IMG/VR virus record: IMGVR_UViG_3300010261_000005
Span: 1 to 32,133 of that record
Length of the DNA: 32,133 nucleotides
Source of the DNA: a virus
Lineage: Duplodnaviria > Heunggongvirae > Uroviricota > Caudoviricetes
Direction: 5' to 3' (one strand)
The translations under genes were made by a program, and so were the position numbers. Shown here piece after piece: positions 1,395 to 19,593 of the stretch. How positions within the stretch are numbered: the first letter of the stretch is position 1; the number at the start of each line of letters is the position of its first letter. Under the pieces are notes generated by a model that worked only from the letters and a program-made list of their open reading frames with translations, had not been told where the DNA came from and searched no databases.

Positions 1395-2111
1395 TTAATT
1401 AGGTTCAAAAATTTTAAATTCATTCCACGGCAATTTTTTCCAGTTACTGGATGGATCTTTCAACCATGCAGTGACTTCCTTTAAATCACGGTTCGCAGTG
1501 GCGACGGGTGTATCGTATATCATTAACCATTTTTGTCGGGCGCGAACATAAGCACTGGCATAATCTTCCCATGAAGCGAAACAATCTTGTGCTCTTTGAG
1601 CATTCAGTAATAACACTATCCAGGCCTGGTTTTCATCGCACCAGCCGAAACCGGCGATGCAACGAGTTAAAAAAGCAGTGCGCATACAGTCAAACGCCAG
1701 CGCATCCAGGACCTGGCCTTGTGCTGCCAGCTGTTCGTAAAAATCATGTGGAGAATTACCAAGCCCTGTAGCCCAGCGTTGTAATATAACGCCAATTTGT
1801 TGGTGGAAATCTTCGTTGCTTTGGTAAGTTTCTGTTCCTAACTCTTGTTTAACCTGTAGTGCAAGTTGTTGACGCTTATCATCAGTCAACTTTAAATCTA
1901 ACGTGAAGCCATTTACTGGCAGTCCATTACGACGAGCAACTATATCACCAATTGCTAATGCCCACTTACGTCTCTTTGTTGCTCGTCTTTTGTCCTTGAG
2001 TAGATCCTTTTCTTTTTCTTTAGCAAGAAAAGCATCGATTAGTGGTTTGTTTTTTTTGTATCTATAGATAAAAATAAATATTGCGACCAGGAGAACAATG
2101 ATAAGACTCAT
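1395..2111 (-). CDS. Hypothetical protein with N-terminal transmembrane helix, possibly DUF1266-like
   Basis: 238-aa ORF; N-terminus MSLIIVLLVAIFIFIYRYKKNK is a hydrophobic helix followed by a basic stretch. Start ATG overlaps the stop of the upstream 407-aa gene (TAATG). The DUF1266 assignment is from memory only. Confidence 0.55.
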   Translation of the reverse strand: MSLIIVLLVAIFIFIYRYKKNKPLIDAFLAKEKEKDLLKDKRRATKRRKWALAIGDIVARRNGLPVNGFTLDLKLTDDKRQQLALQVKQELGTETYQSNEDFHQQIGVILQRWATGLGNSPHDFYEQLAAQGQVLDALAFDCMRTAFLTRCIAGFGWCDENQAWIVLLLNAQRAQDCFASWEDYASAYVRARQKWLMIYDTPVATANRDLKEVTAWLKDPSSNWKKLPWNEFKIFEPN

Positions 2112-3334
2112 TATTTTTTAACCTCTGACAGGGGTAAGTAATGAGATGTCTGTAATGTCAAACTCTCTATCTCAAAGGAAATATTGCTGATATTTTGACC
2201 TGCAAATTGCGGATGCCACTCAGCGCCAGGGAATAACATTTCCGCAGAAGTAGCAACTATAGGGTCAATAGCATTAAGATAATGTAACTTATCAGGTGCG
2301 CTGTGTAACAGTAACCACTGCAACTCCACCGAAGGAGTTGCAAAGTGTTCTAATAAATGAAAGTTATTATGTAGTACACTTAGTAAGAAACTGGTTTCGT
2401 ATACTTCCGTTACATATTTCCACCCCTGATGCTCCGGTGTATTTTCATAAACAATACCCATACCTTCACAATCACTATGTCGAACTGCTTGTGGTGACAA
2501 CATCTGCAAAAGAGATAAAACATTGTCCGCATATTTTTTTACTGGATGACGATTTTGCTTACCTTTTATTTGATCAATTTTCAGTGAATCACCGATAACA
2601 TTAAGGGCAATAGTAACATGAGGAATATTATTGTTATCACGCAAACTGAATAACCGTAATTTATGTTGCTCAATTTGATTTGCATAATACTCGCCATAAC
2701 CACCGGTAAGATTTTTTCGATCATCAAACTGACCTACACAATGTTGCATATGCCATGATTCATAAGCCATCTCACGACGAAGGTTCGAATGACTGGCATC
2801 AAACTCAACAACTTTTCCGTCTGGCACATCAAGTATTAACTTTACGGTATTTTGTTCACTCGGTTGCCACCCTTTCTCGCGCCGTTGAAGCATTTTTTCA
2901 TGCTCTTCTTCACGCATTCTGAATGCGGCGTAGCAGGTTATGCGCTGTAGTTTTGATTCCAGACGGGTACCACATTTCCTGGAAAGAAATTCCACCAACT
3001 CTCGTTCTTTGGTTAATATTTGTTGATGATCGGTTTCGATATAATAAACTGTCGAAGTTGATACTGAGGCATTATTAAACTTCGATACCAGCCATTCCGG
3101 GAGTACATCATCATTTTTATTAAACAGTGAATATTCTGCTAGCGAGTTAATCTGTTGCGCCATTGGAAAGTCACTAATTAGCCATCGATAAAAATGGTTC
3201 AGCAACCATTTTTGGATGGTCTCATTATCCTGGCGACACAGACTTCTTTGCAAAATTGCTGTTTTTACTTCCGGGGCATTGATTACATCCCTTGCATTAT
3301 AATTTTGGTGAATATTCCCATTCATAACATCCAT
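2111..3334 (-). CDS. Hypothetical protein (407 aa), first gene of a three-gene minus-strand operon
   Basis: Long ORF with an AT-rich 5' intergenic region (3335..3549); translationally coupled to the next gene. No family recognised. Confidence 0.55.
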   Translation of the reverse strand: MDVMNGNIHQNYNARDVINAPEVKTAILQRSLCRQDNETIQKWLLNHFYRWLISDFPMAQQINSLAEYSLFNKNDDVLPEWLVSKFNNASVSTSTVYYIETDHQQILTKERELVEFLSRKCGTRLESKLQRITCYAAFRMREEEHEKMLQRREKGWQPSEQNTVKLILDVPDGKVVEFDASHSNLRREMAYESWHMQHCVGQFDDRKNLTGGYGEYYANQIEQHKLRLFSLRDNNNIPHVTIALNVIGDSLKIDQIKGKQNRHPVKKYADNVLSLLQMLSPQAVRHSDCEGMGIVYENTPEHQGWKYVTEVYETSFLLSVLHNNFHLLEHFATPSVELQWLLLHSAPDKLHYLNAIDPIVATSAEMLFPGAEWHPQFAGQNISNISFEIESLTLQTSHYLPLSEVKK

Positions 3335-3812: not shown

Positions 3813-5174
3813 ATGTTTAAACCGGAACTCCTTTCCCCGGCGGGAACGCTGAAAAATATGCGTTACGCTTTCGCTTATGGCGCGGATGCTGTTTATGCGG
3901 GCCAGCCACGTTACTCCCTGCGTGTGCGCAACAACGAATTCAACCACGAAAATCTTCAGCTCGGCATCAATGAAGCCCACGCGCTGGGGAAAAAGTTTTA
4001 TGTCGTGGTCAACATTGCACCGCACAACGCCAAGCTGAAAACCTTTATTCGTGACCTGAAACCGGTGGTGGAAATGGGGCCGGATGCGCTGATTATGTCC
4101 GATCCAGGGCTGATTATGCTGGTGCGTGAACACTTCCCGGAAATGCCAATCCACCTCTCGGTACAGGCTAACGCCGTAAACTGGGCGACGGTGAAATTCT
4201 GGCAGCAAATGGGTCTGACCCGCGTGATCCTCTCTCGCGAACTGTCACTGGAAGAGATTGAAGAGATCCGCAATCAGGTGCCGGATATGGAGATCGAAAT
4301 CTTCGTTCACGGCGCGCTGTGCATGGCCTACTCCGGTCGCTGCCTGCTCTCTGGCTATATCAACAAGCGCGACCCGAACCAGGGCACCTGCACCAACGCC
4401 TGCCGCTGGGAGTACAACGTCCAGGAAGGGAAAGAAGATGACGTCGGCAACATCGTACACAAGTACGAGCCGATTCCGGTGCAAAATGTTGAGCCGACGC
4501 TGGGTATCGGCGCGCCAACCGACAAAGTGTTTATGATCGAAGAAGCCCAGCGTCCGGGCGAGTATATGACCGCGTTTGAAGATGAGCACGGCACTTACAT
4601 CATGAACTCGAAAGATCTGCGCGCCATCGCCCATGTTGAACGCCTGACCAAAATGGGCGTGCATTCGCTGAAAATCGAAGGCCGTACCAAATCTTTCTAC
4701 TATTGCGCACGCACCGCGCAGGTTTACCGTAAAGCTATCGATGACGCCGCTGCGGGCAAACCGTTCGATACCAGCCTGCTGGAAACGCTGGAAGGTCTGG
4801 CGCATCGTGGCTATACCGAAGGTTTCCTGCGTCGTCATACCCACGACGATTATCAGAACTACGAATACGGTTATTCGGTTTCTGACCGCCAGCAGTTTGT
4901 TGGTGAGTTTACCGGTGAGCGCAAGGGGGAGCTCGCGGCGGTAGCGGTGAAAAATAAATTCTCCGTTGGCGACAGCCTTGAGCTGATGACGCCGCAAGGC
5001 AACATTAACTTTACCCTTGAGCATATGGAAAACGCCAAAGGTGAAGCTATGCCGGTCGCACCAGGCGATGGTTATACTGTGTGGCTCCCGGTGCCGCAGG
5101 ATCTTGAGCTAAATTACGCGCTGCTGATGCGTAATTTCTCCGGGGAAACCACGCGTAACCCCCACGGTAAGTGA
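3813..5174 (+). CDS. yegQ: U32-family peptidase YegQ (TrhP, tRNA hydroxylation)
   Basis: 453-aa ORF, MFKPELLSPAGTLKNMRYAFAYGADAVYAGQPRYSLRVRNNEF..., recognised as E. coli YegQ including length; GAGAG RBS upstream of ATG. Confidence 0.9.
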   Translation: MFKPELLSPAGTLKNMRYAFAYGADAVYAGQPRYSLRVRNNEFNHENLQLGINEAHALGKKFYVVVNIAPHNAKLKTFIRDLKPVVEMGPDALIMSDPGLIMLVREHFPEMPIHLSVQANAVNWATVKFWQQMGLTRVILSRELSLEEIEEIRNQVPDMEIEIFVHGALCMAYSGRCLLSGYINKRDPNQGTCTNACRWEYNVQEGKEDDVGNIVHKYEPIPVQNVEPTLGIGAPTDKVFMIEEAQRPGEYMTAFEDEHGTYIMNSKDLRAIAHVERLTKMGVHSLKIEGRTKSFYYCARTAQVYRKAIDDAAAGKPFDTSLLETLEGLAHRGYTEGFLRRHTHDDYQNYEYGYSVSDRQQFVGEFTGERKGELAAVAVKNKFSVGDSLELMTPQGNINFTLEHMENAKGEAMPVAPGDGYTVWLPVPQDLELNYALLMRNFSGETTRNPHGK

Positions 5175-5258
5175 TTAATTTCGATTATTTTTCCCGGATG
5201 GAAAATTCTTAGAAACCGATCACATACAGCTGCATTTATTAAGGTTATCATCCGTTTC

Positions 5259-5345
5259 GCTGAAAAACATAACCCATAAAATGCTAGCTGTACCAGGAAC
5301 CACCTCCTTAGCCTGTGTAATCTCCCTTACACGGGCTTATTTTTT
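5259..5345 (+). ncRNA. cyaR: CyaR (RyeE) Hfq-dependent small RNA
   Basis: Sequence gctgaaaaacataacccataaaatgctagctgtaccaggaaccacctccttagcctgtgtaatctcccttacacgggcttatttttt matches the E. coli CyaR sequence as I recall it. Ends in a terminator hairpin (cctgtgtaa / ttacacggg) plus T6. A -10-like TATCAT lies about 8 nt upstream of the 5' end, and a TCACA CRP half-site at about 5220..5224. Confidence 0.8.
5319..5345. other. P2 attachment core (prophage/chromosome junction, locI-type) within the 3' end of cyaR
   Basis: aatctcccttacacgggcttatttttt is the reverse complement of the 27-nt P2 att core AAAAAATAAGCCCGTGTAAGGGAGATT as I recall it. It lies between chromosomal cyaR and phage ogr, the expected junction for a P2 prophage. 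Confidence 0.65.
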
Positions 5346-7404: not shown

Positions 7405-9852
7405 TTAACCGTCATGCATCATGCTGGCACGGGCGCGCGCACGTTTATCCCGCTCGTATTTTTCGAGCGCATCCTGTAACTGGCGGTCGAGCTGTGTCCC
7501 CGGCGCAGTACCACCCGTCAGGCTGATGTGATATTCGTTTTTACTCTGGTCTACATAAGAGCGGCCAGCCGGTGCCGTGACCGGCTGATAAGCCTGATAA
7601 CCTGCATAAGAGCTGGTCGCCGGAATATAACCACCGCTGCCATACGTGGCGGCTTGAGTTCTGGCGGCGGTCTGGTCAAGTGTGTCTGACTCTTTGTTGA
7701 TGACACCGAGTTTTTCCAGTACCCAGTCAATACCACTGCGCAGTTTGTTGAACGCATTAAGCGGCAGCATCAGCGCGTCAGCCAGTGCCTGCCCGAACAT
7801 GACGCCCGTGTCACGGCAACGGTTCAGGGTGTCCTGGGTGGCTTTGACCGGGGCAATCAGGTTTTTAAACCACTGCCACGCGGCCTGTAACTTTTCACCC
7901 AGCCAGTCAAACACCGGTTTAAGTGGCGTGAACAGTTCCCCCACCGGCGCAAATGCCGCTTTCAGCCCTTCCACCACACCGCCAAAGAATGCGCTGACAG
8001 GCTCCCAGTATTTACGGATAAGCAACGCCCCGGCGACAATTGCAGCCACCACGGCCACAACCGGCCAGCTAATCGCCCCGATGGCCGTCATAACGGCACT
8101 ACCAACAGTCGTGAAGATTGCCCCCATTGCGCCTGCTGCCGCGATGATGGCATTGATGCCGGTGATAACCGGCCAGGCTACGAGGCCAATGGCACCGATG
8201 ACACCAGTCAGCGCCAGTGCACCACCGACAATGAGGCCGATGGTTGACGCCAGTGATTTGTTTTTCTGGATCCAGCCGTCGAGTTTTAACACATACTTTG
8301 TGGCCGTCTGCGTGAGATTACGCAGTGCGCCTTCCTGCTGGTCAAACAGGTCAGTCCCCACCGCTTCATAAGCGGACTGAAACTCCTTAAAGTCACCGCC
8401 GAGGTTATCCTGCATGATTTTAACCAGCTCTTCCGTTTTACCGTCCGAGGCTTTCAGCGTGGCGGTCAGCTTATCCAGTTTTCCGCTTGCTGCCGCTGCC
8501 AGTAAAACGTTCGCTGATTTCAGGGCTTCCTCACCAAAAATGGTTTTAAGGTATTCCCCCTTCTGAGACGTTCCCAGCTTATGCTTATCAAAGCTGGCCT
8601 GAATCTCTTTCAGAATGGTGAACAACGGACGCATATTCCCCTTTTTGTCCGAGGTTTTAACGCCAAGCTCTTTGAGTGCATCCCATGCTTTTCCAGTCGG
8701 TGCCTGTAATCGGGTGACAACGGCACTGCTACCCGTACCCGCCATTGACCCCCTGATGTTATTGTCATGCAGCACACCGGTCATGGCCGCTGCCTGCTCA
8801 AGACTTACACCTGCCGTCCTCGCAACCGGGCCGAGGTAAGTCAGTGCATCACTGAGTCCCTGAAAATCAGCCGCCGACTTATTCATCGTTGCCGACAACA
8901 CGTCGCCCACATGGCTGACATCATCATTTGACAGTTGAAAGGATGCCTTAGTCCCCAGCAACAATTGCGCGTTTTCTTCCATCGACCGCTGGTTTGCCAG
9001 TGCCATATTCAGTGTGACCGGCGTTGCTGCCTGAATAGCCGCAGCATCTCCACCCGCTTTCGCAATGATAATCTGTGCACCGGCTGCATCATCTGCCGAG
9101 GCTGCGGTATTGTCGCCGAGCTGGCGCGCCTGCTTGCGGAGTGCGGTCATTTCGGCGGAGTCTTTTGCCACACTCAGCACGGCCTGCAATTCTGAGTTTT
9201 TCTGCGCAAACTCATAGCCGGGCATCAGCAGCTTAACTCCGGCCATCGTTCCCGCCGCCGCAATCCCCACACCGGCAGCGCCCACCGAGGCCATATTTCC
9301 GGCCAGTTCCTTGCCTGCCTGATAACGCTGTTTGACTGCGTTAAGTTTTGCCTGTTGCGCACTGACACGCGCCAGCGCGTCACGCTGCCGGTTAAGCTGT
9401 GCGGTGGTTTCACTGATACGGTTTTTCAGCCCTCGTTCATCATGCGCCAGATTACGGGTATTAATACCCGCCTGACTCAATTCCTGACGCTGGCGCTGTA
9501 CCGACAATCTCAGGCTGTTATATTTCGCCTGTAACTCAGACGCATTTTTACGCGCGGCTTCCATTGCCTTTGCCTGTGCATTTGTCGGTCGTTCAGTATT
9601 TTTAAACTGGACAGCCAGAGCTGCGGCTTCCTGTCTGGCTTTTTTCAGTTCCTGACCAGTCACGGCGAGCTGTGCACTGGTCTTGCGGAATCCCTCAATA
9701 CGGGATGCGTGACCGTTCAGCTCGCGCAGTGATTTTTGTGTTTCCCGGATATCCCCCGACAGCGACTTACTCGCTGTACGGATGGATTTAAACGGGCGGG
9801 ATGCCTGGTCAACAGCCCTGAGCAATACCTGTAATTTTACATTGTTACTCAT
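7405..9852 (-). CDS. T: Tail tape measure protein T
   Basis: 815 aa, P2 gpT length; coiled-coil N-terminus, hydrophobic Gly/Ala-rich central segment, position after E/E'. Confidence 0.9.
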   Translation of the reverse strand: MSNNVKLQVLLRAVDQASRPFKSIRTASKSLSGDIRETQKSLRELNGHASRIEGFRKTSAQLAVTGQELKKARQEAAALAVQFKNTERPTNAQAKAMEAARKNASELQAKYNSLRLSVQRQRQELSQAGINTRNLAHDERGLKNRISETTAQLNRQRDALARVSAQQAKLNAVKQRYQAGKELAGNMASVGAAGVGIAAAGTMAGVKLLMPGYEFAQKNSELQAVLSVAKDSAEMTALRKQARQLGDNTAASADDAAGAQIIIAKAGGDAAAIQAATPVTLNMALANQRSMEENAQLLLGTKASFQLSNDDVSHVGDVLSATMNKSAADFQGLSDALTYLGPVARTAGVSLEQAAAMTGVLHDNNIRGSMAGTGSSAVVTRLQAPTGKAWDALKELGVKTSDKKGNMRPLFTILKEIQASFDKHKLGTSQKGEYLKTIFGEEALKSANVLLAAAASGKLDKLTATLKASDGKTEELVKIMQDNLGGDFKEFQSAYEAVGTDLFDQQEGALRNLTQTATKYVLKLDGWIQKNKSLASTIGLIVGGALALTGVIGAIGLVAWPVITGINAIIAAAGAMGAIFTTVGSAVMTAIGAISWPVVAVVAAIVAGALLIRKYWEPVSAFFGGVVEGLKAAFAPVGELFTPLKPVFDWLGEKLQAAWQWFKNLIAPVKATQDTLNRCRDTGVMFGQALADALMLPLNAFNKLRSGIDWVLEKLGVINKESDTLDQTAARTQAATYGSGGYIPATSSYAGYQAYQPVTAPAGRSYVDQSKNEYHISLTGGTAPGTQLDRQLQDALEKYERDKRARARASMMHDG

Positions 9853-10272
9853 TCGTGTTTCCGCTTCGCCGGAGCGCCTTTTCGCGCCATGTGATGAGTT
9901 CGGTCAGGCTCATGGGATACAGTTCTGATGGCGGCCAGTGAAATATCACTGCCACATCCGCCATCAGGTCATCGACCGAGAGATTTTTCGGAAACGTCAC
10001 TGCACCGAGTTCGGCGACAAAAAACCGACCACCTTACCGGCCAGCGCCACAAGGTCAGGCAGTTCCAGTGCGGCGACTTCCTGCTCGGTCAGCATCGGTG
10101 CAGTCATGCGCGGCAGCACCTTAATCAGTGCATCGACTTCGGAGTTCGCGACCGCAGCCAGACTGACACCGCGCAGCGTCCCGGCGTTAGGTTTCATCAG
10201 CGTGACCTGTTCGATAACCTGCTCACCACGTTTGACCGGATTGTCCAGGGTAATGACGTTTTCTTTGTTCAT
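9845..10272 (-). CDS. E': Tail assembly chaperone E+E' (programmed -1 frameshift product, about 142 aa)
   Basis: Zero-frame codons GGT TTT TTG (Gly83-Phe84-Leu85) give a T TTT TTG slippery heptamer at 10024..10018 (minus strand). Hand translation of the -1 frame from 10018 reads VAELGAVTFPKNLSVDDLMADVAVIFHWPPSELYPMSLTELITWREKALRRSGNTNE and stops at TAA 9847..9845, overlapping the T start. 85 + 57 = 142 aa, the P2 E+E' length. Confidence 0.75.
9997..10272 (-). CDS. E: Tail assembly chaperone E
   Basis: 91 aa, matches P2 gpE; contains the slippery site near its 3' end. Confidence 0.9.
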   Translation of the reverse strand: MNKENVITLDNPVKRGEQVIEQVTLMKPNAGTLRGVSLAAVANSEVDALIKVLPRMTAPMLTEQEVAALELPDLVALAGKVVGFLSPNSVQ

Positions 10273-10328: not shown

Positions 10329-10847
10329 TTACAGGCCGATATTGCGGCGGTGTTGCTCCAGCCGGTCGACGCCGTTCACCTTCTCAATCATGTTGATGGT
10401 GTCGATTTCGACCAGCTCCTTACCGTCCATCGTCAGCCGGAAATAGGTGCAGACCACGGAGATTTTCGACTCGGTGTCTTCTCCCTGTTTACCCTCGCCG
10501 GTGTCGATTTCTTTCTGACGTCCACGCATGACCACCTCGACGGCTACCGTTTCGCCGGTATCGTCGCGCTGGTAAGAGCCTGCAAAACGAATCGGCACGG
10601 CATCCACACCGGTTGCGGCGTAAAGCTCCCAGATAACCGAATCCGGGAAGCCCCCGAGCGACCACTCCATTGACAGCGCATCGTCATCAAGGCCGAGGTC
10701 TACCGGTGCGCTGCCGTTCATCCCCGCACCGCGATAGTTTTCGAGCTTACGGGTCAGTTTTGGCAGCGTGACGGACTTTGCAACGCCCTGATAGCTGTAG
10801 CCGTTCAGAAAGACGTTCATTAACTTGAGTTTGCGCGGCATTGCCAT
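10329..10847 (-). CDS. FII: Tail tube protein FII
   Basis: 172 aa, P2 gpFII length and position. Confidence 0.9.
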   Translation of the reverse strand: MAMPRKLKLMNVFLNGYSYQGVAKSVTLPKLTRKLENYRGAGMNGSAPVDLGLDDDALSMEWSLGGFPDSVIWELYAATGVDAVPIRFAGSYQRDDTGETVAVEVVMRGRQKEIDTGEGKQGEDTESKISVVCTYFRLTMDGKELVEIDTINMIEKVNGVDRLEQHRRNIGL

Positions 10848-12450: not shown

Positions 12451-13230
12451 ATGAGTAATGAAACACAATCATTCCTTAGTCAATTGCTAATATCCATAAT
12501 CTCTATATCTTTAGGGTCATTTCTTTTTGCTGGAATCCTAGAGAGCTACAAAAAAGACCAAGATCTTCAGGAGGAGTTTATAAAGGATTACTTTAGGCCA
12601 ATGATGAAATTACAAAGTTCTTGTTCATCTTCACATAATGAACTATTTCTAAAGTATGGAGAGTTATCTGCTTCTTATCAGCTCATGTATAATGAAATAG
12701 TACATATGGCAATGAGCCCTGATTCAGAATTAGGACAACATTATGAAGTTCTCCCGATGTCTCTTATTAAAACAAATGAAGAGTTAAAAAAAAGAGTTGA
12801 AGATCTTGAAATGACGGTAAAAAAATGCAATATCGATTTATTCCTTAAGTACGAAGAGCTTGCATTAGTTACTGGTTCATATCCAGAGTTTAAGAGACTG
12901 GCGAAAAAACACACTGACACAATTAACTCCATCTATTCAGAAAGACAAAAAAAAGCAAAGGAAAATGCAAAAAATATAGACCCTGATCAACTAATTCCAT
13001 TGATGCGGAAATATATTGCCATGGATCCACACACCAATGTAAACAAATCCATGCTTGCCAGTGAAATAGATAACATATCTAAACTAACAACACAGCATAA
13101 TTTGATAATGGCAGAATATGAGGAGTTAATTTTCAAAGAAGATAATGATTTATTTATAACTCTTCATGATCTTTATGCAATCAAAATTAGTGAAAAGTAT
13201 TCAGGTGGATTTATCAGTTGGATATTTTAA
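12451..13230 (+). CDS. Cargo protein at the P2 Z/fun variable locus: membrane-anchored coiled-coil protein of unknown function (candidate anti-phage/abortive-infection factor)
   Basis: 259-aa ORF in markedly AT-rich DNA between FI and G, in the Z/fun orientation (divergent from FI, convergent with G). Residues about 8..30 (FLSQLLISIISISLGSFLFAGIL) form a predicted TM helix; the remainder is charged and helical (K/E-rich). No P2 backbone equivalent recognised. Confidence 0.75.
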   Translation: MSNETQSFLSQLLISIISISLGSFLFAGILESYKKDQDLQEEFIKDYFRPMMKLQSSCSSSHNELFLKYGELSASYQLMYNEIVHMAMSPDSELGQHYEVLPMSLIKTNEELKKRVEDLEMTVKKCNIDLFLKYEELALVTGSYPEFKRLAKKHTDTINSIYSERQKKAKENAKNIDPDQLIPLMRKYIAMDPHTNVNKSMLASEIDNISKLTTQHNLIMAEYEELIFKEDNDLFITLHDLYAIKISEKYSGGFISWIF

Positions 13231-13912: not shown

Positions 13913-16648
13913 TTACACCTGTGCGACGTTATACCATGTGCCATTGATGTATTTTTGTATTGGTCTGAATACTGCGGGGTCATCACCATCGACTTCACCG
14001 ACAATACCAAGCCCGGTAATTACGTGCCCTGCTTTCTCATACATCACCCCTTTCTGCATGGTCTGGACAACACGTGTGCCAAGTCTGACATCTCTCACAT
14101 AGCGGGAATCAAAGTTACCGTAATCCGAGGGATTAACACGCCCCGTAATATTTATGGTTTTATTACTTTGAACGCTTCCGGAGACAAAGCGCATAACATG
14201 GACGCTATTAGCATAAACATCCAGATTACCATCACCATTTTGTTTAAAGCCCGTGTCATTATCACCCAAAACAATCGAATTACCGCCAAGAGCACTGGAT
14301 GTTCCTATACCCAGAGCACCATTCAATTGACCACCAGATAACGGCAGTGCACCGACATCTCCCGCTGTAGGTTTTCGCGTTGTGGTATAAAACTCAGACC
14401 AGTCAGCCTCGAATCCGTAACCGTCACGAGCAGAACGATAAAAAATACCACCGTTCTTATAATTAACGCGAAACTGGGCGGCGGGACAACTTCCTTCACC
14501 GATATTAAAATGAAGAATTAACGTTGATGCCCCACCAATAGTTGCGTTATAGGCTCCGCTACTCCAGTTCCATCCAACGGCTTTATCATTCGCAACAGTG
14601 TCTCCTGTTTTTCCTGAAGCAAATGCACCAATATTTTTCGGCGTCAGGTTAATATCTGATGTTCCATCAAACGAAACGTTATTAATTTTACGGGCTGTTT
14701 TCAGCTTTGTTGCTGTCGCCGCATTGCCGGACAGTTCACCAGAAAGGCCAGCACTGAATGTCTGTTTCGCGCCCCATGTCTGGGCTTCGTCAATGATTGG
14801 TACTCGTCTTGTTGTGATCGTGCGGCTTCCCGGATTTCCTGAAATGCGCACCATAAAAAAGCGGTAGTTGGCTTTACTTACAGTGCTGCGCCATACATGC
14901 ATTGAGCGCCCCGTACCGGAATCATCACTCGGACCAACTGCGATGTTTATCAGGTTGCCATCAATGACGCCCCAGTCCATACCGTCGGGAATGTTGGTCA
15001 TGTTATCAAGCCGAACGGTTATCAGACTGCCCGGCACAAAGTCGTGGGTCTGCCAGTCCAGGCTGGTGAGCTTTGCCACTGCACCGCCGATACCCAGATT
15101 CAGGGGAAGTGAATACGAGGTGTAGACTTCCCGCCATTCGCTCCACGAGCTGCCGGTATAGACGCGCTCAAACGTGCGACCTTTAAGGGTTGCACCTGTT
15201 CCGGCAGTTGTATAACGCTGCCATACGTTAACACCATCAAAGCGCCTCAACACTTCCAGAATACCGAGGACTGTCACGCCGTTTCCGTCCAGTACTGGAC
15301 CGTTGGTCGCTTTACCTGTAACGCTGTAAATACCTGGTGAAGTCACATCATTCAAATCCCCGTCGTAATAACGACTCTCTGACTGATGACCGACTCTTAA
15401 CCACGGTTCCCACTGCGGATTTGATGCATCCCAGCTTGCCGCAAGGCAGCGGACATACATATTTCCACGGCGAGTGGTATAACGTTGCGTTCTTCCATAA
15501 TTCCCGCCTTCGAGGATCTCAAGCGTCCCCTGAGCAAAGCCGCCTTCCTCTGGATAATTGCGTTCATATGAAGCTATAGCCGAGCTACTGTTACGCCATA
15601 AACCAAGATGTTCGGCGGCTCCAAGCGTATTCAGGTCTATAGTCGTACTCAAAGGGCGGGTAGCTGATTGAGTGTGACGCCATACGCCCCATGGACCATC
15701 AGTACCATTCCACTTATTGGCGAGTTTACGCATGTATACATTGCCGTCTCTCGTGATAAAGCGTTGCGTGCCTGCAAAATTGCCGGCAGCAAAAACCTCA
15801 AGCACACCGACAGCATTATCTTCCGGGAAATTTTTCTCCAGTGTTGCGTTAGTTGAGGTAGCTTTAGACCAGATCCCCAGATAAGCCTTAACTGGACCAA
15901 ATGTATTCAGATCAGCATCAACCGGCATTTCGCCGTTGTTTTTCATAAACGTCAGGCTGGTAACGCCAACATTGTCCAGAAAAGCTGATTTATCCTGGAT
16001 ATCTGCACCGTTCTGATTTTTCGCCAGACGTGAATTTGCGTTGTCATTCGCAGCCTTGACCGCTTTTGGCGTTGCCGCCAGTTTTTCACTGGTGCTGTTT
16101 GTTGCGCTGCTTAACTGGGTAAAACCTTTTTCTGTCAGCGTAGCGTCAGGATGGCGGCGGGACTGCTCATGTTCTGCGATTTTGTCATCGACGTAATCCT
16201 GCGTCGCCATCACTGTGCTGGCATCAATACTCAGCTCAACGGACGCCACGTTACTGACAATAATAACCATGCGGCAGGTCTGCGCACGCCCGGAGCCTTC
16301 AGCGAGTTCAGGCTTATAGCTTTCTGCCATGTTGGCGACCGCAATCAGTGTTCCGGCATCGTCATACAGACCAAGCTCACGCATCCAGAAGCCGCCCACT
16401 TCGGGCGGTACAACCAGTTCAGCCACGATATAGTTTTTATTCTTGTTATCCACGCTGACTTTATTCAGAGCGTGACGCCAGACCTCATGCACCAGTTTCG
16501 TCTGACCGGCATCCGGCACCGGCAATTTGCCATTACCGTCACCCACGGCCATTGCAGACAGGGTTACTTTTTTCCCGCCGGGGACAGTGGCGGCTGCCAG
16601 CTTTGCGGCTCCGGCAGTAGTGATAACGGTTTTAAATTTCGTGCTCAT
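13913..16648 (-). CDS. H: Tail fiber protein H (extended variant, 911 aa)
   Basis: N-terminus MSTKFKTVITTAGAAKLAAATVPGGKK... is P2 gpH-like. The protein is much longer than P2 gpH (669 aa) and carries internal repeat modules (GTQRFITRDGNVYMR / GRTQRYTTRRGNMYVR / NVWQRYTTAGTGATLKGRTFERVY). Confidence 0.9.
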   Translation of the reverse strand: MSTKFKTVITTAGAAKLAAATVPGGKKVTLSAMAVGDGNGKLPVPDAGQTKLVHEVWRHALNKVSVDNKNKNYIVAELVVPPEVGGFWMRELGLYDDAGTLIAVANMAESYKPELAEGSGRAQTCRMVIIVSNVASVELSIDASTVMATQDYVDDKIAEHEQSRRHPDATLTEKGFTQLSSATNSTSEKLAATPKAVKAANDNANSRLAKNQNGADIQDKSAFLDNVGVTSLTFMKNNGEMPVDADLNTFGPVKAYLGIWSKATSTNATLEKNFPEDNAVGVLEVFAAGNFAGTQRFITRDGNVYMRKLANKWNGTDGPWGVWRHTQSATRPLSTTIDLNTLGAAEHLGLWRNSSSAIASYERNYPEEGGFAQGTLEILEGGNYGRTQRYTTRRGNMYVRCLAASWDASNPQWEPWLRVGHQSESRYYDGDLNDVTSPGIYSVTGKATNGPVLDGNGVTVLGILEVLRRFDGVNVWQRYTTAGTGATLKGRTFERVYTGSSWSEWREVYTSYSLPLNLGIGGAVAKLTSLDWQTHDFVPGSLITVRLDNMTNIPDGMDWGVIDGNLINIAVGPSDDSGTGRSMHVWRSTVSKANYRFFMVRISGNPGSRTITTRRVPIIDEAQTWGAKQTFSAGLSGELSGNAATATKLKTARKINNVSFDGTSDINLTPKNIGAFASGKTGDTVANDKAVGWNWSSGAYNATIGGASTLILHFNIGEGSCPAAQFRVNYKNGGIFYRSARDGYGFEADWSEFYTTTRKPTAGDVGALPLSGGQLNGALGIGTSSALGGNSIVLGDNDTGFKQNGDGNLDVYANSVHVMRFVSGSVQSNKTINITGRVNPSDYGNFDSRYVRDVRLGTRVVQTMQKGVMYEKAGHVITGLGIVGEVDGDDPAVFRPIQKYINGTWYNVAQV

Positions 16649-19140: not shown

Positions 19141-19593
19141 CTAACGGTCGAGGTGAGCCAGAATAATCTCTTCAATCATCTGCACATCCTCACCGGTAAA
19201 GCCGAGCAGAGGACGCGCCGGATAATCAATTTTCTTACCGTCTTTCCGGGTTTCTTCCGACAGACCGAACTGATGCACACTGGCGATTTTCGGCGACTTC
19301 CCGCCGTAAAATTCCATTGATGCCTGTTCCGGGCTGGCGCGGATATGCAAAAAACGACTGGTGATAAGTTTCGCAAACATTTTTCGCTTAACACGACCGG
19401 TCTTTTTTCTGGCGCTCTGCTGCTGGCGTGGCGCATAGGGTGTGCCGTCCGGGGCTTTCTGTGCCATCACCCGACGCTGCTGGTTCTGCCGCAGACGCTT
19501 CGCCAGTTCGGCGCTCAGTCGCCGACGCCCTGACGGTGACAGCGATTCAGTCAGTCCGGTCAGCCGGTCTTCAAAACGCTTAAACTCATTCAT
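19141..19593 (-). CDS. S: Tail completion protein S
   Basis: 150 aa, P2 gpS length and position. Confidence 0.9.
   Translation of the reverse strand: MNEFKRFEDRLTGLTESLSPSGRRRLSAELAKRLRQNQQRRVMAQKAPDGTPYAPRQQQSARKKTGRVKRKMFAKLITSRFLHIRASPEQASMEFYGGKSPKIASVHQFGLSEETRKDGKKIDYPARPLLGFTGEDVQMIEEIILAHLDR

Follow-up and report, generated by a model that had tools for sequence, protein, structure and literature searches.

The window analysed here, which is the whole stretch of 32,133 nucleotides, is a P2-like (Peduovirus) prophage of E. coli, inserted at the 3′ end of cyaR. Four tail genes or gene segments follow one another in the order FII (tube), E, E′ and T (tape measure), so that E and E′ lie between the tube and tape-measure genes. 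The features considered below are, with coordinates of the window:

7405..9852, minus strand: gene T, tape measure protein, 815 aa (Pfam PF10145 PhageMin_Tail, E=2.1e-44)
9845..10018, minus strand: E′ extension, 57 codons plus TAA in the −1 frame (translation, Pfam)
9997..10272, minus strand: gene E, zero-frame product gpE, 91 aa, tail assembly chaperone (open reading frame and translation)
10018..10024, minus strand: slippery heptamer T TTT TTG, made up of the third base of Gly83, Phe84 and Leu85 (sequence, P2 annotation, conservation)
10027..10036, minus strand: Shine–Dalgarno-like element UAAGGUGGUC, 2 nt 5′ of the heptamer, candidate 5′ modulator (predicted 16S pairing)
10034..10036, minus strand: TAA of the −1 frame, three codons upstream of the heptamer (read from the sequence)
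10329..10847, minus strand: gene FII, tail tube protein, directly upstream of E (Pfam PF04985 Phage_tube, E=2.3e-60)

For two low-GC cargo ORFs, scans with Pfam and PADLOC returned no matches.

Near its 3′ end, gene E carries the codons GGT TTT TTG at positions 83–85 of 91, which places the heptamer (10024..10018) in the zero frame, as an earlier sequence-only reading of this DNA had stated. That reading had also proposed a −1 frame open for 57 codons up to a TAA overlapping the start of T, and both points hold: after re-reading of G10018, 57 sense codons (VAELGAVTFPKNL...SGNTNE) follow in place of an immediate −1-frame stop, and E′, ending in the TAA at 9847..9845, shares 8 nt with the beginning of T, whose ATG occupies 9852..9850, within the junction ATGAGTAA. 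Codons 1–85 of E and the 57 codons of E′ together give gpE+E′ with 142 aa, the fusion length expected by the same reading, whose interval 9845–10272 is the exact span of E+E′, with the minus strand left unstated. A productive −1 shift is bounded on the 5′ side by the TAA at 10034..10036 and on the 3′ side by the E stop at 9999..9997. Both halves of the fusion are recognised by Pfam, gpE by PF10109 Phage_TAC_7 (E=2.6e-12, 47 bits against a cutoff of 25) and residues 104–139 of the fusion by PF06528 Phage_P2_GpE (E=1.2e-21, 76.3 bits against a cutoff of 23). Searching the PDB by sequence with the whole 142-aa product gave no solved relative at E <= 1. Bare TTTTTTG occurs 16 times in the window, where 9.6 +/- 3.5 copies are expected, which is no significant enrichment. 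A second in-frame copy, followed by 37 open −1 codons, is found in the ORF that occupies the position of gene S. Among the 41 in-frame X XXY YYZ heptamers in the 29 genes of the window, the E site has the longest open −1 frame, and at least 57 open −1 codons are found at only 2.1% of 9,023 codon positions, with a median of 9.

The region is 98.4% identical to P2-type records, and from E codon 69 to the T start, including the heptamer and all of E′, DNA identity to P2 NC_001895 is 100%. Nine nucleotide differences to P2 remain in the aligned region, eight of them in E codons 1–68 and the other ahead of the E start, and only the nucleotide pair in codon 29 alters the protein (N29 here, S29 in P2 gpE). 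The gene names E, E+E′ and T assigned from the sequence beforehand match the P2 records. NC_001895 joins E+E′ into a single CDS, noted as '-1 frameshift; essential tail protein', and marks a '-1 translational frameshift' site, for which the RefSeq table has a misc_feature one base past the heptamer's G. The P2 protein (NP_046780.1 / UniProt O64312) contains the junction GFL|VAEL, the same as derived here. A junction reading ...GFLFAEL... was rejected, being absent from the protein collection on exact look-up, and the deposited P2 protein with ...GFLVAEL... indicates that the G is re-read. According to papers citing Christie 2002, the P2 −1 frameshift site was verified experimentally, and the E/E+E′ frameshift is already known, being part of the P2 reference annotation and of the literature since 2002. 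The same sequence occurs in 1,587 of 5,426 complete E. coli genomes.

To follow the site beyond P2 itself, we compared 77 related loci (79 unique sequences in some counts) down to 36% protein identity; these loci are phylogenetically related, and the counts given here overstate the number of independent events. In all 77 the T-run is exactly 6 long in the register nnT TTT TT(G/A), and this motif is in frame in 79/79 unique sequences while the preceding codon varies between Gly, Ser, Asp, Tyr, Pro and Asn. The Leu at the site is always encoded by TTR, compared with 6.6% of Leu codons elsewhere in E, and the per-sequence expectation for the observed encoding of the site is 0.005. Downstream, variability of the −1 frame by codon position (0.164/0.103/0.350) falls mostly on third positions and thus displays coding periodicity, and tblastn matches extend through residues 137–142 in relatives down to 36% identity. 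The length of the −1 ORF stays between 54 and 83 codons, and overlap between the E′ stop and the T start is seen in 76 of the 79 unique loci, most commonly over 8 nt. Upstream of the site the −1 frame is open for only 3 codons in 35/77 loci. Loci from Cupriavidus, Ralstonia and Sphingobium retain the TTTTTTG site, as do Burkholderia P2-like phages, and in distant loci the zero-frame tail of E after the site comprises 12–34 codons versus 6 here. The anatomy of the sequence, its identity with the experimentally characterised P2 site, and the fact that site and −1-frame protein are both deeply conserved are direct observations. Since the E site combines the longest −1 frame with recurrence in 77 related loci, the pairing of heptamer and long −1 frame is more than chance.

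We are therefore highly confident that the locus carries the canonical programmed −1 ribosomal frameshift of the P2 FETUD tail operon. In the mechanism that we propose, most ribosomes would read E to its TGA and yield gpE with 91 aa. In a minority, the tRNA-Phe at codon 84 (UUU) and the tRNA-Leu at codon 85 (UUG) would move back by one base and re-pair with UUU UUU, and reading would continue at GUC in the −1 frame to yield gpE+E′ with 142 aa and the junction ...GFL|VAEL.... For a −1 shift after decoding of Leu85, the predicted tryptic junction peptide is VVGFLVAELGAVTFPK. By analogy to lambda gpG/gpGT, the shared E domain would bind the tape-measure protein T and the E′ domain would recruit the tail tube protein, and a fixed ratio of both chaperones would allow tube and sheath to assemble around T to the correct length. 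For synthesis of the fusion, its frequency, its essentiality and its role as a chaperone we rely on the literature. In P2, the shift reportedly takes place at about 10%, and the fusion is said to be essential for lytic growth, with loss of E′ reported to prevent tail formation. The P2 frequency has been given as 2–3 times that of lambda, which is roughly 1:30 (PMC5009743).

The same downstream frame would also result from a one-base insertion in the run, as expected for transcriptional slippage, in which RNA polymerase would add one U to U6 and the resulting U7 mRNA would be read normally, with the junction GFFVAEL. The corresponding peptide VVGFFVAELGAVTFPK is the predicted product of either a U7 transcript or slippage in the P-site only. 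T7 versions of the gene, deposited as an in-frame 142-aa 'GpE family phage tail protein' (RJK13013.1, QTN08932.1), show that the fused form is encodable; however, neighbouring genes in the same assemblies are also broken (L083, L084), suggesting homopolymer errors. The runs on which bacterial polymerases are described to slip efficiently have about 9 A/T (PMC5009743), whereas the run here has only 6. That it never exceeds this length in 77/77 loci, keeps the X XXY YYZ register and is followed by a purine which makes the Leu codon TTR fits re-pairing of tRNAs, not slippage of polymerase, and we consider polymerase slippage very unlikely. Still less probable, to a degree that makes it hardly credible, is E′ as an independent gene of 51 aa starting at GTG 10000..9998. 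Such an ORF does exist, overlapping the E stop as GTGA, and E′ is annotated as a separate GTG-started gene in RefSeq and LR595870. Its GTG is however present in only 3/77 loci, and in all but 6/77 the open −1 stretch preceding the site is free of start codons. Reading on from the shift site, one has to go 18 codons into the −1 frame to reach a widely conserved start, the ATG for the Met of the conserved DDLMAD motif, whose use would cost E′ its first 18 residues. There is no Shine–Dalgarno sequence at initiation distance, the Shine–Dalgarno-like element preceding the GTG by about 26 nt. In P2 records and in the literature, moreover, E′ is treated as an extension of E. Independent initiation of E′ was rejected on the ground that no start codon is conserved among the 77 loci. 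Mere co-occurrence of a T-run with an open alternative frame, in which no recoding takes place, has a negligible probability and is refuted by the comparative data: TTTTTTG is not significantly enriched in the window and another in-frame copy lies at the gene S position, but deep conservation extends to the site, the frame, the length of the −1 ORF and its Pfam domain, and the overlap of the E′ stop with the start of T.

Returning to the ribosomal frameshift, its efficiency invites a closer look at the surrounding RNA. In E. coli, U UUU UUA and U UUU UUU are far less shift-prone than A AAA AAG, a comparison that did not extend to UUG (PMC5009743). Downstream of the heptamer, folding of 42 sequences by RNAalifold gave a consensus of −2.27 kcal/mol with no pairs within ~55 nt after the heptamer. 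A fold of the single sequence over 111 nt reached z = −2.55, with hairpins which begin inside or beside the heptamer or ~50 nt away, and a local hairpin starting within 2 nt of the site displayed no covariation. A 3′ stimulatory structure was rejected, given that the 42-sequence consensus fold conserves nothing near the site. Because U-runs are weakly shift-prone and a classical 3′ stimulator is absent, an efficiency in the range of 10% is not fully explained.

Upstream of the heptamer, the duplex of UAAGGUGGUC with the 3′ tail of 16S rRNA is predicted at −14.0 kcal/mol, with the best pairing formed by GGUGGUC and GAUCACC. Across the 77 loci, the Shine–Dalgarno-like element is the strongest anti-Shine–Dalgarno position from −200 to +100, and its codons show a synonymous bias (AAG 53/55 and GTG 65/70, compared with 40% and 42% elsewhere). 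The spacing to the heptamer is 2 nt, or 4–7 nt in other pairing registers. We tentatively suggest, and consider it rather unlikely on present indications, that UAAGGUGGUC could act on the P2-type frameshift as a functional 5′ modulator, at shorter spacing or in another 16S register than the dnaX element with its 9–14 nt. If true, the element could account for a weakly slippery U-run attaining 2–3 times the efficiency of lambda with no 3′ structure to help, and it constitutes a small testable lead on how the efficiency of phage tail frameshifts is set. As an observation, the conserved element may be new: the frameshift surveys examined do not mention one at P2-type sites, although the primary P2 paper may already note it.

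The discovery value of the site is small, and its practical use lies in annotation. Since RefSeq and several deposited phage genomes split the region into E and a spurious 51-aa 'GpE family' gene, the essential 142-aa chaperone is missing from their proteomes. The expectation that ORF callers miss the fusion is therefore supported, with E and a 51-aa GTG-started E′ separated in RefSeq and in one deposited phage annotation. The conserved features provide a rule for automatic correction, namely exactly six T's in nnT TTT TTR, a −1 ORF of 54–83 codons and an E′ stop that overlaps the tape-measure start. The statement of the sequence-only reading that the frameshift confirms a functional tail module goes too far, as the intactness of the recoding site fits a functional module but is no proof of one.

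Compared with other known systems, the E/E′ site shares with E. coli dnaX (A AAA AAG) tandem slippage, a homopolymeric heptamer ending in a purine and an upstream element complementary to the anti-Shine–Dalgarno sequence. In dnaX-type sites, however, the 5′ Shine–Dalgarno element stands at the stimulatory spacing of 9–14 nt (PMC5009743), compared with 2–7 nt here, and a 3′ stem-loop or pseudoknot follows 5–9 nt after the heptamer, whereas no 3′ stem-loop is conserved here. Efficiency is also far below the 50% of dnaX, and the shifted product is the longer one, unlike in dnaX. Lambda gpG/gpGT (Levin 1993; Xu, Hendrix & Duda 2004, 2013, 2014) has the same pair of overlapping ORFs between the major tail (tube) and tape-measure genes. 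In both the lambda and the P2-type system, the −1 shift takes place near the end of the first ORF, the second ORF has no start of its own, and tail assembly needs a fixed ratio of short to long product (PMC5009743; PMC3091744). The two differ in the heptamer (G GGA AAG in lambda, T TTT TTG here), in tail type (siphovirus as opposed to the contractile myovirus here) and in efficiency, which is reported to be 2–3 fold higher for the P2 type. The analogy to lambda G/GT drawn from the sequence beforehand is correct and concerns arrangement and function, since Pfam at E <= 0.001 gave only PF10109 and PF06528 and no sequence homology to lambda gpG/gpT. With overlapping ORFs upstream of the tape measure, apparently joined by frameshifting and conserved in relatives, the locus can be assigned to the lambda G/GT-type functional class. 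Closer relatives are the Burkholderia P2-like phages KS5, KS14 and KL3, which keep TTTTTTG at 49–59% protein identity and in which no downstream hairpin was found (PMC3091744); they differ in their hosts and in the zero-frame part of E beyond the site, which is longer. The closest counterpart is P2 gpE/gpE+E′ itself (NP_046781 / NP_046780; Christie et al. 2002, J Bacteriol 184:6522), with the same gene, site, frame, 91/142-aa products and operon position, the difference being that P2 is the reference phage and the copy described here resides in a prophage of the E. coli chromosome. Judged by its sequence, the locus belongs to the P2-type E/E+E′ tail chaperone frameshifts of the Peduoviridae, with gene order, PF10109, PF06528, the heptamer and an E′ lacking its own start all in place.

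On the minus strand of the window, the zero-frame tail assembly chaperone gene E, its -1-frame extension E' and the tape-measure gene T are arranged around the slippery sequence as follows.

10272..9997, minus strand: E, a 91-aa ORF, MNKENVITL...AGKVVGFLSPNSVQ*
10024..10018, minus strand: heptamer T TTT TTG in X XXY YYZ register, with E codons 83-85 reading GGT TTT TTG
9852..9850, minus strand: ATG start of T, the 815-aa tape measure and next gene after E/E'
9847..9845, minus strand: TAA stop of E'

The sequence-only reading had placed the heptamer in the zero frame of E at codons 83..85, followed by a -1 frame open for 57 codons and ending in a TAA that overlaps the T start, and all of this was recovered. 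Re-reading G10018 in the -1 frame gives the 57 codons of E' (VAELGAVTFPKNLSVDDLMADVAVIFHWPPSELYPMSLTELITWREKALRRSGNTNE*) with no early stop after the site, the TAA and the ATG of T overlap by 8 nt (junction sequence ATGAGTAA), and 85 + 57 residues add up to the proposed 142-aa fusion, the exact span of which is 9845-10272, as had been given with only the strand left unstated. A further -1-frame TAA at 10036..10034 (-) lies just three codons 5' of the heptamer and, together with the E stop downstream, confines a productive shift to the 39 nt between them, where the T-run is the only slippery motif. The earlier observation is confirmed and its interpretation supported.

The bare heptamer is not enriched in the window, with 16 copies vs 9.6 +/- 3.5 in shuffles; the exceptional part is its combination with an open -1 frame. 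Among 41 in-frame X XXY YYZ heptamers in the 29 window genes, the E site has the longest open -1 frame, and at least 57 open -1 codons follow just 2.1% of the window's 9,023 codon positions (median 9). We additionally observed a second in-frame T TTT TTG at 19348..19354 (-), codon 80 of 150 in ORF 19141..19593 (-), which sits at the gene S position going by P2 gene order. Its 37 open -1 codons are the second-longest stretch among the window's in-frame heptamers, and this copy is probably due to chance.

Conservation was assessed over 79 loci encoding relatives, from a scan taking one genome per species, with 56-100% identity in Enterobacterales and 36-53% in Cupriavidus, Ralstonia, Sphingobium, Sphingomonas, Tolumonas and Crenobacter. 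Wherever the locus sequence is complete, the site reads nnT TTT TTG in the zero frame towards the 3' end of E, TTA replacing TTG in 8 of 79 unique sequences, and it is retained even between loci whose flanks are no longer recognisably similar. Six T's, no more and no fewer, make up the run in 77/77 loci. The codon before the run varies (GGT, AGT, GAT, TAT, CCT, AAT), its final base always being T. The site leucine is TTG or TTA in 79/79 unique sequences, while elsewhere in the same genes TTR makes up 6.6% of Leu codons and CTG 76%. From the genes' own codon usage, X-Phe-Leu would be written as nnT TTT TTR with a chance of 0.005 per sequence, which is not a formal probability because the sequences are related. 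The -1 ORF spans 54-83 codons across relatives, and in 76 of 79 unique loci the stop of E' and the start of the tape-measure gene overlap. Variability by codon position in the -1 frame (0.164 / 0.103 / 0.350) marks a frame that is translated and under purifying selection. Exceptions in the locus set are two contig-end fragments in which the site is present (L064, L070) and one locus with a T5 run (L059).

Tandem -1 slippage is the best-supported model for the shift, in which peptidyl-tRNA-Phe (UUU) and aminoacyl-tRNA-Leu (UUG) would re-pair on UUU UUU, GUC being the codon read after the slip. Such tRNA re-pairing is favoured because the register, the run of exactly six and the purine at position 7 are all conserved. 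Database variants include T7 runs in E. coli assemblies (L082-L084; RJK13013.1, QTN08932.1), which encode an in-frame 142-aa 'GpE family' ORF with the junction GFFVAEL; T5 in place of T6 was seen in Enterobacter sp. EA-1 (L059:1723). Since adjoining tail genes are fragmented too in L083 and L084, these T7 and T5 variants are probably homopolymer assembly errors rather than natural fused alleles. A classical stimulatory hairpin was rejected: the one in the single-sequence fold begins <=2 nt from the heptamer, which is too close, and shows A-C mismatches and no covariation in relatives. The 42-sequence consensus fold (-2.27 kcal/mol) contains no conserved 3' structure and leaves the roughly 55 nt adjoining the site unpaired. 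Downstream hairpins are likewise reported absent in a paper on Burkholderia P2-like phages, which cites Christie et al. 2002 and Xu, Hendrix & Duda 2004 (PMC3091744). RNA-polymerase slippage, described for runs of about nine (PMC5009743), does not fit a run of six with conserved register and purine.

Directly upstream of the slippery site lies a Shine-Dalgarno-like (SD-like) element.

10036..10027, minus strand: SD-like element UAAGGUGGUC, 2 nt 5' of the heptamer

Its predicted duplex with the 16S 3' tail GAUCACCUCCUUA reaches -14.0 kcal/mol, the GGUGGUC:GAUCACC register by itself -10.7 kcal/mol. Between -200 and +100 in 77 loci it is by far the strongest anti-SD position, with a mean of -9.75 kcal/mol vs -2.2 regionally (standard deviation of positional means 1.6), and 10 of 16 distant loci have a local anti-SD energy in the best 20% of their own gene background. 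Lysine is AAG in 53/55 cases at the element vs 40% elsewhere and valine GTG in 65/70 vs 42%; the bias is synonymous and held by codon choice. Depending on pairing register, the spacing to the heptamer is 2-7 nt, below the 9-14 nt that stimulate -1 shifts (3 nt for +1; PMC5009743), so that the element's effect is not predictable; it may stimulate from an unusual register, act as a tuner or be a by-product. Two frameshift surveys and PMC3091744 do not mention it.

That ORF callers miss the fusion, as the sequence-only reading had held, is borne out by two records in which E and E' stand apart.

NZ_CP141083.1 2820281..2820436: split-off 51-aa E' CDS with GTG start, RefSeq (L085)
LR595870.1 18405..18560: split-off 51-aa E' CDS with GTG start, deposited phage record (L001)

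For the 100%-identical genome of E. coli KE50 (NZ_CP141083), RefSeq has no joined CDS; it gives a 'phage tail assembly protein' of 276 nt and, starting at GTG, its own 'GpE family phage tail protein' of 156 nt. LR595870 calls its 91-aa ORF 'GpE+E''. The GTG taken as E' start by automatic annotation is found at 3 of 77 loci. No start codon is widely conserved before an ATG 18 codons past the site, the Met of the conserved DDLMAD motif; initiation there would lose the first 18 E' residues. Among 5,426 complete E. coli genomes, 1,587 carry the 701-base stretch surrounding the site, and the 10 top-listed matches all bear the same two separate product names; the mis-annotation is probably repeated across these roughly 1,587 genomes.

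The surroundings of the tail module are those of a prophage, with the following features outside it.

1395..3334, minus strand: two low-GC ORFs in the chromosomal flank past the peptidase-U32 gene, a DUF1266 protein (238 aa) and a PcfJ-like protein (407 aa)
3813..5174, plus strand: peptidase-U32 gene, beyond attP/CyaR
5257..5342, plus strand: CyaR/RyeE sRNA (Rfam, 100.7 bits)
5319..5345, reverse orientation: P2 attP core, 27/27 identical
12451..13230, plus strand: 259-aa ORF, opposite strand, in a low-GC island (GC 0.37) flanked by FI (tail sheath) and the gene G-position ORF
13913..16648, minus strand: tail fibre gene H, 911 aa
28654..29976, minus strand: 440-aa ORF, in a low-GC island (GC 0.36) flanked by the portal (Q)/cos end and replication gene A

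The attP core overlaps the CyaR 3' end and, with CyaR and the peptidase-U32 gene, which we take to be yegQ, identifies the window as E. coli chromosome into which a P2-like prophage has integrated, at the cyaR terminator and beside that gene. Starting at about 5.3 kb, the prophage fills the remainder of the window with the gene order ogr, D, U, T, E, FII, FI, cargo, G, H ... P, Q, cargo, A, and its immunity/integrase end lies outside. The 259-aa ORF falls where P2 carries its variable Z/fun locus, the 440-aa ORF where P2 carries its variable old/tin locus; the former is a candidate moron or anti-phage cargo gene, the latter a candidate defence cargo gene, and neither has a Pfam or PADLOC match. 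The DUF1266 and PcfJ-like ORFs, which may form another small island, have no PADLOC match. The C-terminal region of H is T4 gp37-like (PF12604, PF20744 weak), and the length of the whole H product, presumably greater than that of P2 gpH, suggests a swapped receptor-binding tip.

In Pfam, E matches PF10109 (Phage_TAC_7, 'tail assembly chaperone proteins E, or 41 or 14') and E' matches PF06528 (Phage_P2_GpE), with tail sheath, tail tube (PF04985), tape measure (PF10145), GpU and GpD as neighbours. Peduovirus genomes match the 701 bases at 98-99.7% identity. In an alignment with the P2 reference NC_001895, no base differs between E codon 69 and the T start, both included; all nine differences lie upstream of codon 69, and the sole amino-acid change is N29 in the window where P2 has S29. 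NC_001895 annotates E as 91 aa, E+E' as a CDS joined from two pieces ('shares amino terminus with gpE; -1 frameshift; essential tail protein') and a 'site of -1 translational frameshift'. By exact-sequence look-up, GFL|VAEL is the junction in the deposited protein NP_046780.1 (UniProt O64312, 'Tail assembly protein E''), as results when the heptamer's G is read a second time. In P2, Christie et al. reportedly found about 10% frameshifting in 2002, with E' essential. The paradigm is lambda G/GT, whose 30:1 ratio is crucial to tail assembly, with the tape measure bound by the G portion and the major tail protein by the T portion (PMC5009743). The feature described here is the known P2 E/E+E' programmed -1 frameshift in an essentially identical copy, the conserved SD-like sequence adjoining the heptamer being the only element not obviously in the literature.
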